Virus record (IMG/VR): IMGVR_UViG_2645727669_000007
Length of the DNA stretch: 21,267 nucleotides
Direction: 5' to 3' (one strand)
From: a virus
Taxonomy: Duplodnaviria > Heunggongvirae > Uroviricota > Caudoviricetes
This document shows positions 1-16,035 of the stretch, piece by piece. A model generated the notes under the pieces. It had not been told where the DNA came from, did no database searches, and worked only from the letters and a program-made list of their open reading frames with translations. Within the stretch, counting starts at the first letter, position 1. Every line of letters begins with the position of its first letter. The translations under genes and the position numbers were made by a program.

Positions 1-95
1 GGGGAGGAAGGAAACTACCGGATGGAAAGAGTCCCCCTAAAGCAGACTGACAGACATCACAAATCCCCGGGTGGGGATTTGTGTATAAGAGACAG
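1..95 (-). mobile_element. Terminus of an IS50-like (IS4-family) insertion sequence; 19-bp terminal inverted repeat at 77..95, element body lies left of the window
   Basis: Minus strand of 77..95 reads CTGTCTCTTATACACAAAT, which matches the IS50 outside end (CTGACTCTTATACACAAGT) at 17 of 19 positions as I recall it. The adjacent integrase reading frame loses homology exactly at this point. Confidence 0.55.
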
Positions 96-1115
96 CCGAG
101 TGGCAGGGAATACAAAACTGATACCCTTAAAGCGTGGTAAAGCTTTTAACAAGGCAACAGCAGCATCAGACAGAGGAACTCGATGCTCCTTCGCTGCTTT
201 CATTCGGCTTGCAGGTATGGTCCACGTTTTACCTTCAAGATCGATCTCTGACCACTCGGCACCACGAATTTCACCTGAGCGTGCTGCGGTCAGTATGGCA
301 AACTCAAGCGCACGAGGAGAAACGCCGCTTCGTTCACGTAGTTCTTTCATAAAAGAGCCGATCTGGTTATAGGGAAGGGCCGCATGGTGTTTGGTGATCT
401 GAACTTTACTTGGCTGAGGCAACAGAGGTTTCAGCATACCTTTCCATGCGGCAGGATTATCACCTTCAAAGTATTCTTTGGCCTTGGCGTAATCGATCAC
501 TGTTTCAATACGTCCACGTAGACGACTGGCAGTTTCATTCTTGGTTAACCAGATAGGTTCCAGTATTGCCAGAAGATCGACTTTGGTGATTTCACTAACG
601 GCCTTTTTGCCAATGAAAGGGTAGGCATAGGTTTCCAGTGTGGAACGCCATTGCGCGAGATGTTTTTTGTTCTTCATCTCACTGTCTTTGACCTCCAGCA
701 CTTCTTCACAACATTCGGCAAAGGTCTTTTTCTTCCGGGCCAGTATTTCCTGCCGGGCTTTTTGTTCGTGTTTTTCTTGAAGGGGATTAATACCATTACG
801 GATTTGTTTACGTAGCTCACGCGCTTTGTCACGCGCTTCGGCTAAGGAGACTTCCGGGTAAGGGCCAAGCCCCATATTCAAACGTCTTGGAACTGTTCTA
901 CCGAGATTGTTGATTCGGGTTCCCATAGCCACGCAAAGAACCCATGCACGGGACTGATTTCGGATGCGAAGGTATAAACCATCCACATTACCAACCGCAT
1001 ACATGCCTTCGGATTTTAATCGTGATACGACGAGTCCTGATAGTTCCTTGGCCCTTTCAATGGCATTCGTCACACTTGATACAGAGTTGGCACATTCCTT
1101 GGTATTCTTTAACAT
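96..1115 (-). pseudogene. P4-like tyrosine integrase, 3'-truncated by IS insertion (catalytic His/Arg/Tyr region missing)
   Basis: ORF 57..1115 has integrase N-terminal and core motifs (GLYLRI, PEVSLAEARDKAREL, ILTAARSGEIRGAEW) and ends after FVFPATR. The last 12 codons (57..95) are encoded by the IS terminus. The intact paralog at 3215..4483 continues about 110 residues past the equivalent point. Confidence 0.7.
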
Positions 1116-1316
1116 TACTTTTTATCAACATCAGAATTTCGCATGTAGAAGGTAATCTAAGGTATTGAAATACTTATTGTTATTGTGATATATATAACAT
1201 ATGCAATGATAAGCGCATTTATAGTTTGCGGGTAATTTTTATCTTTTACTGATGGTGTTTATTATTAATGATCATTAATGTAATATATATTAAAATTATT
1301 TTTATGAGGTTCTATT

Positions 1317-2432
1317 ATGTCTGTTAATGATGCCAAAAAACTTGCGGATAAACTTTTCCCAATATTTGATGATGATGATATTTCTATCGTTGATATTCCC
1401 CCTGAGCAGCGTCGATTGCATACCGAGACTTACGATTTTTCAATATCAACACTCGTCGACTATTTGAAAAATGGTACTGTGTTTATTCCTGATTTTCAAA
1501 GGAAATATGTTTGGAGTAGAGGGCAGGCATCAAGATTAATTGAGTCTTTAATAATCCAGTGTCCTATCCCTGTTATTTATTTAAACCAAGAGAAAGATGA
1601 GAGTTTATCTGTTATTGATGGTAATCAACGGTTGACTTCAATTAAACTATTTATTGAGGATGGTTTTGAATTACAGGGATTGACAGCATATCCAGAATTG
1701 GAGGGGAATTCGTTTTCATCACTGGACGCGAGATTCCGTAGGCATATTTTAAATCGCACATTGAGATGCATAACCATATTAAAAGAAACTCACCCTCAAA
1801 TTAAAATTGATGTTTTTGAAAGAATAAATACAGGTGCAGTACAATTAAATCCTCAGGAGGTACGTCATGGAGTTTATCATGGTCCATTATTTACTATGAT
1901 TGACGAAATAAGTGAGGAGAAAGTATGGAGAGACTTAACAGGAATTAAAAATGACACACGAATGAAGAATAATGAACTCATATTGAGAGCATTCGCACTT
2001 TCATATTCTGTGACACCATATAAAAAACCATTAAAGAAATTCCTTAATGATTTTAGTTCTGAAAAACAAAATATTGAACCTGATGTTGCCTTGGAGTGGC
2101 GTAGTAGATTTCTTGGTGCATTAAACTGTATTAATAAATTGTTTGGTAAAAAAGCATTTAGAATTCTAAATGAAAACTTAGAGCCTCAAGTAAGAAATTT
2201 CAATTCTGCTTTATTTGATGCTCTAATTGTCGGGTTTATGGTATCAAAATTTAATCAGGATATGATAAACGAACTTGATGCAACAAAACTTAAGGATTTC
2301 TTAATAGAGTTTCAAAGAATAACATCAGAGGAGCGTTTTAATGAGTCGATTACTTCTGGCACTTCGGCGACGCAATCGGTTCATTATCGTATTAGCACAA
2401 TGAAAAATTTCATTGAACGGTATTTCAACTGA
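1317..2432 (+). CDS. DUF262 (ParB/Srx-like, GmrSD N-terminal-type) domain protein with no fused DUF1524/HNH nuclease
   Basis: 371-aa ORF. GAGG sits 8 nt upstream of the ATG. N-terminal motifs DFQRKYVWS and IDGNQRLTS (DGQQR-like) are characteristic of DUF262. The C-terminal half looks helical with no His-Me finger visible by eye. The region is AT-rich relative to flanking DNA. Confidence 0.75.
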   Translation: MSVNDAKKLADKLFPIFDDDDISIVDIPPEQRRLHTETYDFSISTLVDYLKNGTVFIPDFQRKYVWSRGQASRLIESLIIQCPIPVIYLNQEKDESLSVIDGNQRLTSIKLFIEDGFELQGLTAYPELEGNSFSSLDARFRRHILNRTLRCITILKETHPQIKIDVFERINTGAVQLNPQEVRHGVYHGPLFTMIDEISEEKVWRDLTGIKNDTRMKNNELILRAFALSYSVTPYKKPLKKFLNDFSSEKQNIEPDVALEWRSRFLGALNCINKLFGKKAFRILNENLEPQVRNFNSALFDALIVGFMVSKFNQDMINELDATKLKDFLIEFQRITSEERFNESITSGTSATQSVHYRISTMKNFIERYFN

Positions 2433-3148
2433 TGGCATATATTAAAAGCGCATCTAGAAAACAATTCGAGCAGATTCATTCCAATTTGCTTGAACAGGTT
2501 CGTTATGTTTCAAAAATAAAAGAATTAAGAACAGATATTATACATAGTGTTTATAATAACGCGATATTTCGAGTTTCTGCTGCATTCGAAGATTATATTA
2601 AAGATGTTTTGGAAGATTGGATTGACATGCTGAACCAAAATAACGGATGCCTTTCGCATCTACCTGATGAAATTATCTTGTTTTCTTTATTCAAAAACCA
2701 AGAGAAAAATTTTATAAATTACGTTTCTCATGGTTCTGAGTCAATAATGATGAGTGACTTAAATAAGTGTAAGGATAAACTTCAGGCGTTATCGTCACCT
2801 AATTCTCCTGTAAAGCCTGTTATTGTCCCAAAACAGCTGATAATGGATAAAAAATATCCTTCCAAAAAAAATATCAAACTTCTTTTTAATAGATTTGGTA
2901 TCAAAGATATATTAAAAGCAATGACTGCGAAAGGTAAAAAAGATTATGAGTTCATGCTCCAGTCTTTCTCTGATAGCCGCACGGAGTTAGCCCATTCATA
3001 TTCTTCAATTAATCTTTCAAAAGATACTGTTATTGATAAGCTAAATAATGTTAAAGAAATTGTTAGGATTATGGATAGGATATTATATTCACATGTCTGT
3101 GATAAAAGTGGTAGTGAATACTGGAAAACAGAACTGTTAGCGATTTAG
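2432..3148 (+). CDS. Partner protein of the DUF262 gene; candidate HEPN-like effector (Rx4HxY motif)
   Basis: 238-aa ORF whose ATG overlaps the upstream stop (TGATG), indicating translational coupling. Contains SRTELAHSY (R-x4-H followed by Y) in the C-terminal third. No other family recognised by eye. Confidence 0.55.
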   Translation: MAYIKSASRKQFEQIHSNLLEQVRYVSKIKELRTDIIHSVYNNAIFRVSAAFEDYIKDVLEDWIDMLNQNNGCLSHLPDEIILFSLFKNQEKNFINYVSHGSESIMMSDLNKCKDKLQALSSPNSPVKPVIVPKQLIMDKKYPSKKNIKLLFNRFGIKDILKAMTAKGKKDYEFMLQSFSDSRTELAHSYSSINLSKDTVIDKLNNVKEIVRIMDRILYSHVCDKSGSEYWKTELLAI

Positions 3149-3155
3149 TATTAAT

Positions 3156-3176
3156 GCGGCTAATATCTTTAGCCGC
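3156..3176. terminator. Hairpin between convergent genes (possible bidirectional terminator)
   Basis: GCGGCTA / TAGCCGC 7-bp stem with a 7-nt loop, lying between the stop of 2432..3148 (+) and the stop of the integrase (-). No strong T-run follows. Confidence 0.3.
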
Positions 3177-3214
3177 ATTGAAGTTGAAGCAACCTTTGAC
3201 CACCATGTTTACTT

Positions 3215-4483
3215 TTATTGAGCAAACTCAAACGGCCTGACCATCCCATCCCGATTTGCATCAAGATAATCTGCCCACCACTGTAACATCAATCTTCTCT
3301 GTTCAAGATGTTTGGCCTTATGGGTATAGGCAGCACGCACACTGTTGCTTTCCTTGTGGCTCATCTGAAGTTCTACCGCATCTTTAGACCATAGCCCTGA
3401 TTCAATCAGAGCACTACATGCCAGTGTTCGGAAACCATGACCGCAGATGTCCTGCGTGGTGTCATAGCCCATCTTACGCAGCGCCTTGTTGATGGTGTTT
3501 TCACTCATGGGTTTGAATGAGTCATAACATCCAGTAAAAATTAATCCGGCGTCATTACCTTCTTCATAGGTAAGCTGACGGATCTCTTTCAGTATCTTAA
3601 GAGCCTGCCTGCAAAGGGGAACAAAGTGCTGGCGTTTCATTTTTGCGCCACGCGTGGAATATTTGACGCGCTCAATCACTTCACGCTTTTCTGGTATCAC
3701 CCATAACTTACTGTTGAAGTCGATTTCTGACCATCGTGCATAGCGGAGTTCACTGGAACGAATGAAAATCAACAGATTGAGTTTAATCGCCAGTGTGGTA
3801 AGTCCACGGCCTTTGTAGGCATCAATACGTTCAAGTAGCAGGGGGATCTCTTCCAGCTCCAGTGCGGGACGGTGCTCAGTCTCTGGTTTCTGCACAGCAC
3901 CTTCCATATCGTAAGCAGGATTATGGCGCATAAGTTTTTGCTGGACGGCGTGACGCAGGATGGCAGTGATGTATTGCTTGATCCGCATGGCAATTTCAAG
4001 ATAGCCAAGCGTTTCTGCTTTTTTTACCGGAACAAGCAGATCACCCGTATCCAGATCTGAAACGTTGCTGTCACCAATATCCGGGAATACATAGGTCTCA
4101 AGGCGCTTCCATACCGTATCGGCGTAATCTTCAGACCATTTTGTTTTGGTGGCAAACCAGCTTCTGGCGACGACACGGAACGAACGGGTTTTATCCCGCT
4201 TTTCCTGCAGAGTTTTTTCATCAGCCTGTTTTTTAGCGTTAGGATCGATTCCCTGAGCAAGCAGCTTTTTTGCTTCATCACGTCGTTGTCTGGCATCAGC
4301 AAGAGAAACCGCAGGGTAAACACCAATGGAAAACACTTTCTGTTTACCATCGAAGCGATAGCCTAACTGCCAGTATTTTGAACCATTGGGATGCAAAAGA
4401 AGGTAGAGACCAAATCCATCAGTGAGCTTGACGGCTTTTTCCGCTGGTCTGGCATTTTTTACTTTAGTATCAGTAAGTGACAT
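3215..4483 (-). CDS. P4-like tyrosine integrase (intact), tRNA-Asn associated
   Basis: Start MSLTDTKVKNARP is preceded by GGAGGG. Motifs GFGLYLLLHPNGSKYW, YPAVSLADARQRRDEAKK, HGFRTLACSALIESG and RAAYTHKAKHLEQRRLMLQWWADYLD are present. The ORF-track start at 4549 adds an unlikely 22-aa extension. The gene lies immediately downstream of the tRNA-Asn 3' end. Confidence 0.85.
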   Translation of the reverse strand: MSLTDTKVKNARPAEKAVKLTDGFGLYLLLHPNGSKYWQLGYRFDGKQKVFSIGVYPAVSLADARQRRDEAKKLLAQGIDPNAKKQADEKTLQEKRDKTRSFRVVARSWFATKTKWSEDYADTVWKRLETYVFPDIGDSNVSDLDTGDLLVPVKKAETLGYLEIAMRIKQYITAILRHAVQQKLMRHNPAYDMEGAVQKPETEHRPALELEEIPLLLERIDAYKGRGLTTLAIKLNLLIFIRSSELRYARWSEIDFNSKLWVIPEKREVIERVKYSTRGAKMKRQHFVPLCRQALKILKEIRQLTYEEGNDAGLIFTGCYDSFKPMSENTINKALRKMGYDTTQDICGHGFRTLACSALIESGLWSKDAVELQMSHKESNSVRAAYTHKAKHLEQRRLMLQWWADYLDANRDGMVRPFEFAQ

Positions 4484-4623
4484 GACGGTTCCCTCCGCGT
4501 GCTGGTAAAACGCAAATCGAACCAGCTTTACCAGCATTTTTACCAGCAAAGTAGTGTGGATTCGAGCGGTTTTTAACGAACGAGGGTGAACCTGAAGAAG
4601 GGGATAACCAGTTGATATAAATG

Positions 4624-4650
4624 CAGAAAACAGACGTCAGTGAACGTCTG
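4624..4650 (-). terminator. Rho-independent terminator downstream of tRNA-Asn
   Basis: Hairpin CAGACGT-cagtga-ACGTCTG (4631..4650) is followed on the minus strand by a TTTTCT run, and sits directly 3' of the tRNA. Confidence 0.6.
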
Positions 4651-4662
4651 CTTTCTTTAAAT

Positions 4663-4738
4663 TGGCTCCTCTGACTGGACTCGAACCAGTGACATACGGA
4701 TTAACAGTCCGCCGTTCTACCGACTGAACTACAGAGGA
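4663..4738 (-). tRNA. asnT: tRNA-Asn (anticodon GTT)
   Basis: Reverse complement reads TCCTCTGTAGTTCAGTCGGTAGAACGGCGGACTGTTAATCCGTATGTCACTGGTTCGAGTCCAGTCAGAGGAGCCA, a 76-nt cloverleaf with a CTGTTAA anticodon loop that matches E. coli tRNA-Asn as I recall it. The asnT assignment rests on the neighbouring mtfA and serU genes. Confidence 0.9.
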
Positions 4739-7158: not shown

Positions 7159-9600
7159 TTAAAAATCAGCCTGACTCGGGATCAGTTTTTGCCAGATAGC
7201 TGAAACGTATTTTGCCTGGTAACGAGCGTCATCAAGTGCATTATGGCGCTCACCTTCGAATGGGATAGCAGTTCTGGCATCGAAGTCTATGGCTTTCCCC
7301 AGCTCAACGATTGTGCGTACATCGCGATCGTTGCAGTAGCGCCATGGGCAGGGGATACCCTGTCGTTCGTATGAACGGCGTAAAATCACGTTGTCGAAGT
7401 TGGCCCCATTACCCCAGACCTGAACAAAAAATTCACCGGAGTTTTCGTCGATAAATTCCCGCAATTGCAGTAGTGCATCATCTAACGGGATTTCATCGGT
7501 CATAATGGCAGACTGCGCTTCACGTGATTGCTTCAGCCACCATTTAATGACGTCACGATCAATGACTCCGCCAGCAGTATCCAGATCGATGGTCTTGCTA
7601 AATTCCGGTCCCATATCTCCGGTTTGTGGATCGAAAAATATTGCGCCTATTGAGATAATCGGGGCATCGGGATTTTTTCCCATGGTTTCAAGGTCGATCA
7701 TCAGATGAATCCCCGCTCTGCTGGTGGATGTGAGCTTATGATGACCATTCACCTTAATTAAGGGATCTGTCGCCTCGCCAGTTTTATTATCGCTGGCGTG
7801 ATGCTGATTGCCGCCAGGGTTCTCCTTGTGTGGATGTTCAGCGCCTTCCATTTCCTCCGGATCATTTTCCTGAACTTCAACCTGATTCTCTTCATCGAAT
7901 GTTTCCTGGTATGTTGCGTCGCCCATCACCGCGCCACAATCAGGGCAGTTGCCGCCACCGCTCTGACCGCAGGCGGTGCAGACTTTTTCCGGTTCCTGTT
8001 GCGCTACTGGTTCGGATTGTTTCGTTTCTGGCTCGTTTTGTAACGCATTTGGGCTGTTTTGTTCCGCTTTTTGGTCGTTCCGTTCCGATTCATGCTGGTT
8101 CTGGTTCACAGAATCGCGAGTCTGGATCCCCTTGACCCATTTCGGATCATTAGGGTCGCTAATCCCCTCAACAAATTCACCACGCGATACAGCAAGTAAC
8201 TTATCGGCGTCAGGCTGGCTGATATTGGCTGCCTGCATAATTTTGTTTACTTCGTCAGCGGTGACTTTTACTTGGTTAGCGGAACTCACCTGCGACTGAG
8301 CATCCAGCGACTGCGCGTTCTGGCCATGTTCAGTTGTATCCGGTTCCATTGTTTCAGTTGTTGCCTGTTCACCTGCCATTGCGTCAGATGGTTGTGGTTT
8401 TTCTTCTTCTGTTTCACGCTCAGTAACCACCTCGCGGTTAATTTTTTCCAGGATATCTTTTTCCGGCGTATGCCGGGCAGCTGTGAGAGTTTCCTTGCTG
8501 GGGTTCTCGTGATCAGTTTCCGTCAAATAGGCGTTGATATACCCCTGAAGGCGTCCCGGGTAGTGATAAAATTCAGGGTGTGCGCTTCGGATAAGTGCAA
8601 AAATAGCGGCGCGGGAATAGTCCAGAATACCCGGGGTTGCACGAAGTGCTGCGGACCATTCTTTGAACGGACTTTCTTTGTTCAGGACTACTTCTTTTGC
8701 GCGACGATAAACGCTGCCCGGAATTTCATAAATATTAAAATCCATCGGAAGTGTGGCTGCTGCAATCTCCACATCCAGTGTGTCGAGGGTGTGTACTAAA
8801 TTCGGATTGCGATCGGTTTTGTTCCCACCGCCAGCATTAGCACCGGAAGCCGTGCGGGTGATGCGTGAAACACGATTTCCTTTCATCCACTCTTTTGTCA
8901 GCAGACCCCGATCAGTGTAGTCAGCGTCCAGGTATGCTTCGAAAAAAGCAGTTATTAGTCCCAGGTCTGAATTACCAGGATTAGGGAAAACTTTGTCAGT
9001 GTCACGAACCAGTTTGTGGAGGTCGCGAATCTCCAGCGAGTCGAGCAGACTGGTTTTATGCGAAATAGCCAGGGCAGTAACAGCCGGTAGTTCTTCAGCC
9101 CGTGCAATGTGTAATGCCTGGAGTTCGTCGCGTGAAACGTGCGTTACTGGTTTTTCGCTGCCGTGTTGAGCAAGCCAACGAATGGGCAGTTCCTGACCGG
9201 AGACAGGCAGAAGCATGCTCTCCTCAATCTCAGTCATGTCTTCGCCGTTGATGTTGGTATTGTCAGTGCTGGCTGGTTTGTCCTGAACAGAGGGGGAAGG
9301 GCCGATAAATGTCATTGTGATGCCATCTTTCCCGCCTTTTTCATAGCGGTTGCAGAATTCAGTATCAAACACGCCTTCTGGCGGAAGGTCGTCAACAACG
9401 GGCAAATTGACGCGGACGGGTTTTTTAAAGTCGTCTTCATCATAATCGTTGTCATCCATTGCGGTAATGCAGCGGGAGATTGCAACAGATAATTTTTTTG
9501 CTGTAGTCCAGTAAAAACCACCTTTAATTCCTAGGCGTTTTCTTACTTTGTCATTTTTTGCTTCGCAATATAGTGCAAATTCTTCTTTATCAGTGCTCAT
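7159..9600 (-). CDS. RecE-family (exodeoxyribonuclease VIII-like) prophage protein with C-terminal DEDDh 3'-5' exonuclease domain
   Basis: 813-aa ORF. The C-terminus has DEDDh motifs: LMIDLETMG (exo I), WGNGANFDNVIL (exo II), HNALDDARY (exo III). The central region is acidic and low-complexity with a CTACGQSGGGNCPDCG zinc-ribbon-like motif. The N-terminal region resembles RecE from memory. Confidence 0.65.
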   Translation of the reverse strand: MSTDKEEFALYCEAKNDKVRKRLGIKGGFYWTTAKKLSVAISRCITAMDDNDYDEDDFKKPVRVNLPVVDDLPPEGVFDTEFCNRYEKGGKDGITMTFIGPSPSVQDKPASTDNTNINGEDMTEIEESMLLPVSGQELPIRWLAQHGSEKPVTHVSRDELQALHIARAEELPAVTALAISHKTSLLDSLEIRDLHKLVRDTDKVFPNPGNSDLGLITAFFEAYLDADYTDRGLLTKEWMKGNRVSRITRTASGANAGGGNKTDRNPNLVHTLDTLDVEIAAATLPMDFNIYEIPGSVYRRAKEVVLNKESPFKEWSAALRATPGILDYSRAAIFALIRSAHPEFYHYPGRLQGYINAYLTETDHENPSKETLTAARHTPEKDILEKINREVVTERETEEEKPQPSDAMAGEQATTETMEPDTTEHGQNAQSLDAQSQVSSANQVKVTADEVNKIMQAANISQPDADKLLAVSRGEFVEGISDPNDPKWVKGIQTRDSVNQNQHESERNDQKAEQNSPNALQNEPETKQSEPVAQQEPEKVCTACGQSGGGNCPDCGAVMGDATYQETFDEENQVEVQENDPEEMEGAEHPHKENPGGNQHHASDNKTGEATDPLIKVNGHHKLTSTSRAGIHLMIDLETMGKNPDAPIISIGAIFFDPQTGDMGPEFSKTIDLDTAGGVIDRDVIKWWLKQSREAQSAIMTDEIPLDDALLQLREFIDENSGEFFVQVWGNGANFDNVILRRSYERQGIPCPWRYCNDRDVRTIVELGKAIDFDARTAIPFEGERHNALDDARYQAKYVSAIWQKLIPSQADF

Positions 9601-9693
9601 TATTGGTAAACCTCATCACAGATTTAAGTGTGAACAAATCTCTGCCATTGCTGACATATAAGAATGAAACTGGATATTTATTACGGTGCTGTT

Positions 9694-14700: not shown

Positions 14701-16035
14701 TTATGATACCGATAAAAACTTTTTTTTAATTTCTGCTGCCGTTTTCTCCATGCTGGGATATACAGTGCTTTCGGATATATTAAGCTGCGCCAGCTCTTCC
14801 AGAATTTTATTTTTGTTCGCTATCTCCACTCTGTTAAGAGGAAACTCAGCATCTGTTTCCGGTAAAATGGGATCAAGTCCGAACAGAAGAAAAGCTCCTG
14901 CCTGAGATTGTATGCGTTCATTATTTATTTTAGCCTTAAGGAAAACAACTTTCCTTAAGTCATCAGGAATTATTCTGTTTCTAAAATATGATTTTTCATT
15001 CTGTATAAGGTCTGCAAGTTTATCAGTGAGTTCAGATAACTCCATATTACCTTTTCTGGAATCAGAGGAGGACAATTTTTCCAACTCTTCGTAAGATAAA
15101 AGTGATAAGTTTGCTATACAGCTCACTGTATCTGAGTCGAAATATTTAATTTTCTTTCTATTTGTTGAAAACGAAATCACCTGTCCGTTTTCATTGGGGT
15201 TCGAACAGCAAGCAAAATATAATGCTATCAGTGGGTTAGATGTAATGTCTAAGAGTCTTGTAGGCAAGCCATAATGCTGCATGCGGACAAGTTTATCAAT
15301 CGTAAATTTATCCTCCTTAAATTCATTTGGTCTTGCGCTGAGTATTTCACGTACTAAATCAGATTCTGAAGCAAGATGCCTGTACGTCCCGTTTTGATTT
15401 TTTCTGTAAAGAGAGGGGACAAGCTCATATGAGCTTTTAGAGTGTCCACGATAAAAGGTAATGAGACCATCACGAAAGTTTTTCTTTATGAAATTAAGAT
15501 AATCTATAATATTCTCGACTACTGGGTATGTTTGTTTTTTTAATTTGATTGTACCTTTGGGGTGACTATTTTGTTTGTTTAAACCAAGTGATTCCAGAAC
15601 AATATTTAAATCCTTATTTTTTACTGCCCAATGTGTACGGCTTAACCCGAAAGATCCTAGCCCTAGGGTTTCTTTATATAATGTCGTTTGGGGATTCGTT
15701 ATTTCTCCAAAATTATGATTAATCTTGAAAGAAAATAAAATATCGCCACCATCTTTACGTAAATTTCTTATTTCCCCAAGTCTGATCCTGATGTACTTGT
15801 TTGTATCATATTCATCATCTTTTGTATAAGTTTCGGTCATGAACAATACTGGTAGCTTGGCGAGTTCTCTTAAGGTATCGGGTCTTATTGGTGTTAATTT
15901 ACTGTAAATATCGCTTGGGGTGCCTTCCAGCATGCGGGACATCGAGAATCTTTCCTCGCCTTCTGTAAGCCCTGGGTCCATACACGGCCAGCGGTCAAAA
16001 ACGTCCGGTTCTCCGGCCATGATTAAGCTAAACAT
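14701..16035 (-). CDS. FRG-domain protein (defense-associated moron)
   Basis: 444-aa ORF with AGGAG 6 nt upstream of the ATG. FRG-domain signature: ITFYRGHSKSSYELVPSLYR and MQHYGLPTRLLDITSNPLIALYFA. Markedly AT-rich and in opposite orientation to the flanking prophage genes. Confidence 0.65.
   Translation of the reverse strand: MFSLIMAGEPDVFDRWPCMDPGLTEGEERFSMSRMLEGTPSDIYSKLTPIRPDTLRELAKLPVLFMTETYTKDDEYDTNKYIRIRLGEIRNLRKDGGDILFSFKINHNFGEITNPQTTLYKETLGLGSFGLSRTHWAVKNKDLNIVLESLGLNKQNSHPKGTIKLKKQTYPVVENIIDYLNFIKKNFRDGLITFYRGHSKSSYELVPSLYRKNQNGTYRHLASESDLVREILSARPNEFKEDKFTIDKLVRMQHYGLPTRLLDITSNPLIALYFACCSNPNENGQVISFSTNRKKIKYFDSDTVSCIANLSLLSYEELEKLSSSDSRKGNMELSELTDKLADLIQNEKSYFRNRIIPDDLRKVVFLKAKINNERIQSQAGAFLLFGLDPILPETDAEFPLNRVEIANKNKILEELAQLNISESTVYPSMEKTAAEIKKKFLSVS

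Follow-up and report, generated by a model that had tools for sequence, protein, structure and literature searches.

A two-gene operon at positions 1317-3148 of a 21,267-nucleotide (nt) stretch of viral DNA (Duplodnaviria; Heunggongvirae; Uroviricota; Caudoviricetes; IMG/VR record IMGVR_UViG_2645727669_000007) was analyzed here; the whole stretch is referred to below as the window. The operon encodes a DUF262 protein (A) followed by a HEPN protein (B), and we consider it probable, at roughly 70%, that it is a two-gene anti-phage defense cassette belonging to the PD-T4-2 class, which an integrase islet at a tRNA-Asn gene carries as cargo. This domain pairing is already known and named, while the clade found in the window is itself distinct and carries a modified effector.

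Organization and coding evidence of the operon

Gene A (1317..2432, plus strand) encodes a DUF262 protein of 371 amino acids (aa), the predicted sensor or regulator, and gene B (2432..3148, plus strand) a RiboL-PSP-family HEPN protein of 238 aa, the predicted RNase effector. The junction between them reads CAACTGATGGCA, with the TGA of A and the ATG of B overlapping by one base at 2432. Both open reading frames (ORFs) and their TGATG overlap were recovered at exactly the coordinates given in an initial annotation of the window. A and B are real genes and not chance ORFs, since A has more than 1000 homologues, the B family comprises 207 representative clusters, and both are annotated in Escherichia coli E2348/69, A as a 'DUF262 domain-containing protein' and B as a 'HEPN domain-containing protein'.

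The operon is compact (1.8 kb). It is AT-rich, as the initial annotation had noted: its GC content is 0.326, while the integrase genes on either side have 0.467 and 0.474, and the window overall 0.453. A Shine-Dalgarno sequence, GAGG, is located at 1306-1309, 7 nt 5' of the ATG of A. The AT-rich region upstream of A (1116..1316, plus strand) is presumed to contain the native promoter and the 5' untranslated region. A promoter scan returned sigma-70-like matches at 1087-1115, 1109-1137 and 1290-1318; such matches are no commoner than in shuffled sequence, and no promoter was called from them. Downstream, a hairpin at 3153..3179 with an 11-bp perfect stem (AATGCGGCTAA / TTAGCCGCATT) and a 5-nt loop begins 5 nt past the stop codon of B, in the gap where B and the integrase gene converge. 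It probably acts as a terminator, although a simple terminator scan did not call it, as it has no T-run. No tandem repeats of the kind that form the RNA antitoxin or repeat array of type III toxin-antitoxin (TA) or AbiF-like systems were found near the operon, and an Rfam search matched no family other than tRNA.

Protein A combines a DUF262 domain with a NsnA-type C-terminal domain

Protein A is predicted to be a ParB/sulfiredoxin-fold DUF262 NTPase-like protein fused to a 'ParBDB'-type DNA-binding domain. Its sole Pfam match at E<=1 is DUF262/GmrSD_N (PF03235, E = 3.9e-27, residues 45-184). No DUF1524 or other nuclease domain was matched in A at this threshold, in agreement with the earlier statement that the first gene lacks a recognizable nuclease, and DUF1524 was not matched by B either. 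The two DUF262 motifs on which that annotation relied were located at residues 59-67 (DFQRKYVWS, nt 1491-1517) and 100-108 (IDGNQRLTS, nt 1614-1640). When A was aligned with 43 relatives, the QRxxxW, DGxQR and FxxxN motifs proved invariant, corresponding to Q61/R62/W66, D101-G-N-Q-R105 and F167...N171. These are the DUF262 motifs described for NsnA of the Menshen system, where they are assigned to a nucleotide-binding and hydrolysis centre (PMC12065111).

The first part of the protein, about residues 40-190, is a DUF262 (ParB/Srx-fold) NTPase-like domain, and the second, about residues 190-371, is a helical C-terminal domain. The latter is homologous to the C-terminal DNA-binding domain of NsnA, a helical domain named ParBDB by Li et al. 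(PMC12065111). The alignment of A reaches the C-terminus for the Menshen NsnA proteins of Pantoea and Klebsiella loci as well; this end-to-end alignment indicates that A has the two-domain layout of NsnA, ParB-DUF262 followed by ParBDB. Sequence conservation is high, with 50-66% identity maintained from Enterobacteria to Bacteroidota. The nearest structures to A are BrxU and SspE. Among the PHROGs families, A matches phrog_2598 (function not assigned), and NCBIfam returned nothing informative for A or B.

Protein B is a predicted HEPN ribonuclease with a clade-specific insertion

Protein B is predicted from its sequence to be a RiboL-PSP-family HEPN ribonuclease with a catalytic-type R183-x4-H188 motif. 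It matches HEPN_RiboL-PSP (PF18735) over residues 20-218 with an E value of 6.5e-12 and 46.2 bits, well above the curated cut-off of 28.4, and has a second, weaker Pfam match to HEPN_MAE_28990 (PF18737). The segment SRTELAHSY, previously read as a HEPN motif, occupies residues 182-190 (nt 2975-3001), and that reading is upheld by the Pfam match and by the alignment: M1, Y3, E53, P143, N147, R183, H188, D215 and W231 are invariant across 80 B homologues. With R183 and H188 unchanged in 80 of 80 sequences, no feature of the family is more conserved than R-x4-H. An exhaustive profile search recovered 207 representative clusters at 50% identity from several phyla, whose members are nearly all 225-240 aa long and matched end to end.

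An AlphaFold2 model of B is all-helical and of high confidence (predicted local distance difference test, pLDDT, 95.2; predicted template modelling score 0.91). Pfam, the alignment and the model together assign to B the four-helix up-down core of the HEPN superfamily, including a conserved Rx4-6H, in line with the HEPN-like fold supposed for the partner protein; a caveat is that Foldseek gave no significant PDB match for the model. The closest solved folds to this core are the HEPN toxins of HEPN-MNT TA systems (5yep, 8xdj, 7ae2). A profile search of PDB sequences returned none for B, and no PHROGs family matched it.

A profile-profile comparison with the small-HEPN group A9 placed an internal insertion of about 60-70 aa at roughly residues 70-145 of B. 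This insertion is specific to the clade and carries the invariant motifs L77-P78 and K141-Y-P-S144 (KYPS). At the extreme N-terminus (residues 1-12, nt 2432-2467), M1, Y3, S6 and F12 are invariant or nearly so across phyla, and the model assigns this end a pLDDT of about 97, which is unusual for a protein terminus. Such conservation may point to a contact of functional importance, possibly one with A. We also observed a protein of 1186 aa (P0276) in which 11 separate stretches match the B-family profile, the best of them aligning profile positions 4-91 with residues 952-1041. P0276 may thus consist of repeats of the N-terminal half of the HEPN family of B.

The A-B pair is conserved across four phyla

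In all ten related loci surveyed, which span four phyla, an A homologue is followed by a B homologue of 230-240 aa at a distance of -14 to +3 nt. The loci come from Phytobacter, Alteromonas, Hymenobacter, Mesorhizobium, Sodalis ligni, an IMG/VR contig and four metagenome-assembled genomes (deltaproteobacterial, Bacteroidota, betaproteobacterial and Pseudomonadota). Identity to the window proteins ranges from 44 to 91% for A and from 24 to 89% for B. The Mesorhizobium gene had merely been given a late start call. In Phytobacter, the pair is followed by the same convergent integrase as in the window, and in Sodalis it adjoins the integrase of a P2-like prophage.

B is about twice as diverged as A in every locus (for example, A 64% and B 36%, or A 44% and B 24%), which indicates that the predicted effector evolves faster than the predicted sensor. 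In a further locus, on the Acinetobacter baumannii plasmid pB8300 (3001-3528), the B homologue is cut by ISAba22 and the DUF262 gene is intact; this suggests that loss of the effector need not entail loss of A.

The operon shares its architecture with PD-T4-2

The initial annotation could assign the pairing to no named system. This does not hold, as the pair matches two earlier descriptions. PD-T4-2 of E. coli ECOR65 is listed under 'DUF262, HEPN' and comprises two genes, 1540 bp in all (Vassallo et al. 2022). HHpred assigned its first protein to PF03235 and its second to PF18735 HEPN_RiboL-PSP (97.8%), and the system, located at QOYX01000002:338334-339873 (RCO39066.1; Table S2), protects against T4 both when cloned on a plasmid and as judged by its native deletion in ECOR65 (Vassallo et al. 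2022). PD-T4-2 and the window operon are alike in having two co-directional genes in E. coli accessory DNA, the first a DUF262 gene (PF03235, about 340-370 aa, without DUF1524) and the second a PF18735 HEPN gene with Rx4H. Still earlier, 'Ribo L-PSP-HEPN ... operon with ParB' was tabulated in Table 1 of Anantharaman et al. (2013; PMC3710099), as was 'MAE_28990 HEPN in operon with ParB nuclease'. This is the same gene-neighborhood association as in the window, where B belongs to PF18735 and secondarily to PF18737. The 2013 entry is a computational table note that neither delineates the 238-aa clade nor assigns a function. Of the proposal of a candidate undescribed defense module, the defense module thus stands as plausible, whereas 'undescribed' must be withdrawn in view of PD-T4-2 and the 2013 table.

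The likeness is one of architecture. In PADLOC-DB v2, the PD-T4-2_B model (PDLC04028) has 168 positions, whereas the window B has 238 aa with the 60-70-aa insertion, the KYPS motif and the conserved N-terminus. Given this insertion, current defense-finder models would not call the module. The DARNA preprint was considered as a source on mechanism and set aside, as DARNA is PD-T7-3 and unrelated.

DUF262-HEPN pairs appear to form a broad class

To place the window clade, viral contigs were scanned with a DUF262 alignment, which returned 80 loci, of which 60 were analyzed. Most of the NsnA-like DUF262 genes (350-400 aa) in these 60 loci directly precede an ORF of 154-195 aa, and a minority precede ORFs of about 360 and 310 aa, the Menshen pattern. 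A partner of 238-240 aa occurs in only 2 of the 60. On viral contigs and plasmids, 31 small ORFs that immediately follow an NsnA-like DUF262 gene were compared with Pfam; 27 of the 31 match PF18735 and 6 match PF18737. The PADLOC model PD-T4-2_B recognizes 6 of the 31, with a best E value of 2e-6. The difference between 27 and 6 indicates that DUF262-HEPN systems are probably under-counted by PDLC04028.

Two further divergent DUF262-HEPN pairs are present on conjugative enterobacterial plasmids. One, on the E. coli IncX1 plasmid p94EC-4 (L008, 2896-4536), consists of a 365-aa DUF262 protein and a 180-aa HEPN protein whose gene immediately follows that for replication initiation. The second, on an E. 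coli IncF plasmid (L011, 2468-4168), consists of a 353-aa DUF262 protein and a 211-aa MAE_28990-family HEPN protein. BLASTP and profile-versus-single-sequence hhalign found nothing between B and the HEPN partners of these two loci. Both plasmid loci and the 60 viral-contig loci were considered as PD-T4-2 orthologues and none is a true one, the best PD-T4-2_B score being about 21 bits.

Between A and the DUF262 proteins of the other HEPN-partnered lineages, identity is only about 30%. Profile-profile comparison related the B family to small-HEPN group A9 with 88.6% probability (E = 2.6e-6, 162 columns), and to group A8 with 15%, the latter alignment covering the surroundings of the Rx4H helix alone. 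Judged by these comparisons, the window module is placed as a separate, deep-branching clade of the PD-T4-2 class, divergent from the sequence models.

Weighing the assignment against alternative explanations

Several observations weigh against the assignment to a defense cassette of the PD-T4-2 class. PADLOC PD-T4-2_A matches A over its full length (9.2e-44, 148 bits) and is outscored by Menshen NsnA, the best PADLOC match of A (5.6e-83, 277 bits, residues 28-369). No PADLOC model, PD-T4-2_B included, matched B at E<=1, and none matched three B orthologues at E<=0.01. A match to a named system, which the initial annotation took to count against its proposal, was therefore found in the architecture and not in the PADLOC models. 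The relationship between the window and PD-T4-2 is seen at the level of Pfam and PADLOC models, and a Foldseek search of the B model against the PDB gave nothing significant. A neighbor-joining tree of 58 DUF262 proteins speaks for the assignment, since the 238-aa-partnered proteins are monophyletic in it among the HEPN-partnered groups, but it carries no support values. The mechanism of PD-T4-2 is itself still uncharacterized (PMC12065111; 10.64898/2026.02.22.705581), and a defense function of the window clade would be an extrapolation from that system.

The higher NsnA score raises the question of whether the operon is a degenerate or minimal Menshen system, in which A would be an orphan NsnA, NsnB and NsnC would have been lost, and B would be an unrelated neighbor. 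Menshen (NsnABC; Millman 2022; Li et al. 2025, PMC12065111) shares with A the NsnA architecture and the QRxxxW/DGxQR/FxxxN motifs, and A aligns end to end with the bona fide NsnA of the Pantoea and Klebsiella loci. Those genuine Menshen loci carry both NsnB and NsnC, that is, an ATPase (DUF3696/AAA) and an inPIN-nuclease effector, whereas the window has a single HEPN protein instead. Neither NsnB nor NsnC was found anywhere in the window, and no third gene follows B, where the hairpin and the convergent integrase lie. Other HEPN-partnered DUF262 proteins, such as that of p94EC-4, also score higher with NsnA than with PD-T4-2_A, so the ranking reflects model breadth and not membership. Moreover, A and B are tightly coupled in all ten related loci, and in the same neighbor-joining tree the ATPase-partnered (Menshen) proteins form one clade that excludes the window type. 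This weakest of the alternatives is largely refuted, and we regard it as highly improbable.

The pair could also be primarily a TA or addiction module, with a HEPN toxin B neutralized by A and the pair stabilizing the island or plasmid instead of serving as phage-sensing immunity, a reading that we hold to be unlikely. The HEPN-MNT toxins (HepT, SO_3166) share with the core of B both the closest solved folds and the Rx4-6H active-site helix, the genes of the window are translationally coupled, and pairs are found on plasmids and islands, in Acinetobacter pB8300 about 2 kb from a RelE/ParE TA system. In HEPN-MNT systems, however, the partner is a MNT nucleotidyltransferase and not a DUF262 protein, and B is about 100 aa longer and has no sequence-level similarity to these toxins. 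Unlike small antitoxins, A is an enzyme-like protein of 371 aa whose NTP-pocket motifs are invariant and whose identity between phyla is 50-66%, and the architecture-matched PD-T4-2 protects its native host against T4. TA-like behavior and abortive-infection defense are, in addition, not mutually exclusive. Still less credence is given to a type IV restriction-like activity, in which A would itself be a ParB-like nuclease or nickase acting on (modified) phage DNA and B would be accessory or regulatory. It would agree with the designation of the protein that partners the HEPN protein as a ParB nuclease (PMC3710099), with BrxU and SspE, both DNA-modification-dependent enzymes, being the nearest structures to A, and with the selection of PD-T4-2 on T4, whose DNA contains glucosyl-hydroxymethylcytosine. 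DNA cutting in GmrSD, BrxU and SspE is nevertheless carried out by DUF1524. These are single-chain DUF262-DUF1524 proteins, with solved chains of 560-590 aa for BrxU and SspE against 371 aa for A, whereas in the window DUF1524 is not matched and the predicted effector is a separate RNase, not a fused DNase. DGNQR is present in at least 90% of the window clade in place of the DGQQR of GmrSD, BrxU and SspE. The DUF262 motifs have been interpreted as a centre where nucleotides are bound and hydrolysed (PMC12065111), and the invariance of R-x4-H in 80 of 80 B homologues argues that B is probably an active enzyme. The PD-T4-2-class defense cassette remains the reading that we prefer.

The operon is cargo of an integrase islet at tRNA-Asn

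The operon is the AT-rich cargo of an integrase islet at a tRNA-Asn gene, a mobile, sporadic and defense-typical context. Its position between an intact and a truncated integrase at tRNA-Asn, already recognized in the initial annotation, is confirmed by the ORFs and by ARAGORN. The integration site is tRNA-Asn (GTT) at 4663..4738 on the minus strand (Rfam tRNA, 72.6 bits). The intact tyrosine recombinase/integrase (3215..4483, minus strand; annotated start 4483, with the longest ORF extending to 4549 from a TTG) adjoins the 3' end of the tRNA and is WP_001339738.1, 'tyrosine-type recombinase/integrase', in E2348/69. On the left, the cassette is limited by a C-terminally truncated tyrosine recombinase (57..1115, minus strand, a 352-aa ORF), which is annotated in E2348/69 as a pseudogene ('phage integrase central domain-containing protein, missing C-terminus') and whose N-terminal and central domains are only 28% identical to those of the intact integrase. 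It is the remnant of an older island.

The DNA shares 99.9% identity with that of E. coli O127:H6 E2348/69; the window departs from this strain to the left of position 96, where the E2348/69 DNA differs. Positions 1..95, ending ...TTTGTGTATAAGAGACAG, belong to an IS4/Tn5-family insertion sequence (IS), of which they form the terminal inverted-repeat end; they are part of the context and lie outside the module. The same 95 bp are found beside IS4/Tn5-family transposase genes in 1376 E. coli genomes. In the window strain, this IS end removes the C-terminal part of the left integrase gene.

The cassette is present in 42 of 5426 complete E. coli genomes, chromosomal in all of them. Other E. coli share the window only from about position 4656 rightwards, at the 3' end of tRNA-Asn, and their empty site reads yeeJ, tRNA-Asn, mtfA, tRNA-Ser; the island begins at the tRNA-Asn 3' end. 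A comparison of window positions 3215-4738 with E2348/69 locus positions 8116-9639 places the unit formed by the integrase and the DUF262-HEPN genes at different copies of tRNA-Asn, adjoining mtfA and tRNA-Ser in the window and yeeO in E2348/69. It follows that the islet has used more than one asn tRNA gene. A search within the window for an att site, as a direct repeat of the 3' end of tRNA-Asn, gave none, so that the left island end lies outside the window or is degraded.

Farther to the right, a gene at 14701-16035 (minus strand, 444 aa, GC content 0.36-0.39) lies inside a lambdoid prophage integrated at tRNA-Ser. Its product is annotated as a 'FRG domain-containing protein' in other strains and matches phrog_4962 (function not assigned). 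It may be prophage accessory or defense cargo.

Proposed mechanism and significance

The architecture of the operon is compatible with the following model for a defense cassette of the PD-T4-2 class. Through the stop/start overlap, A and B would be made in fixed proportion from one transcript, and their co-translation could favor the formation of a complex. By homology, A would bind DNA, with its QRxxxW/DGxQR/FxxxN pocket serving as an NTP-dependent switch, and may recognize some feature of the DNA of an invading phage, in the manner of the DUF262 modules of GmrSD, BrxU and SspE (PMC10952713; PMC12065111). HEPN biology suggests the subsequent steps: sensing would release or activate B, which would dimerize to form a composite Rx4H active site and cleave RNA, whether tRNA, mRNA or rRNA. 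Translation and phage production would then stop, probably at the cost of the infected cell, in an abortive response.

A more far-reaching and only tentative reading, which we think improbable on present evidence, is that the 238-aa-HEPN clade constitutes a mechanistically distinct immune module and not just another PD-T4-2. It is motivated by the constraint on the DUF262 sensor (50-66% identity) set beside a HEPN protein that diverges about twice as fast, carries the LP/KYPS insertion and has an invariant N-terminus. If this were true, what the sensor reads would be a feature of infection that is universal and non-evolvable, for instance a nucleotide signal or a structure in the DNA, instead of a phage-specific base modification. 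The effector would then be under counter-selection by phages, or else the RNase would owe a new RNA target to the insertion.

The value of these findings is incremental, and lies in better annotation models and in a second, divergent entry into a class of which PD-T4-2 is the sole validated exemplar. DUF262-plus-HEPN operons appear to be common, judging from the 27 of 31 small partners that are RiboL-PSP HEPN proteins and the 207 clusters of the B family. Because the PD-T4-2_B model misses most of the partners examined, the window clade is probably uncounted as a defense system, including in the reference enteropathogenic E. coli strain E2348/69. With its compact size of 1.8 kb, tractable host and clear catalytic residues, the cassette would offer a handle on how a ParB-fold NTPase may couple DNA sensing to an RNase and not to a DNase.

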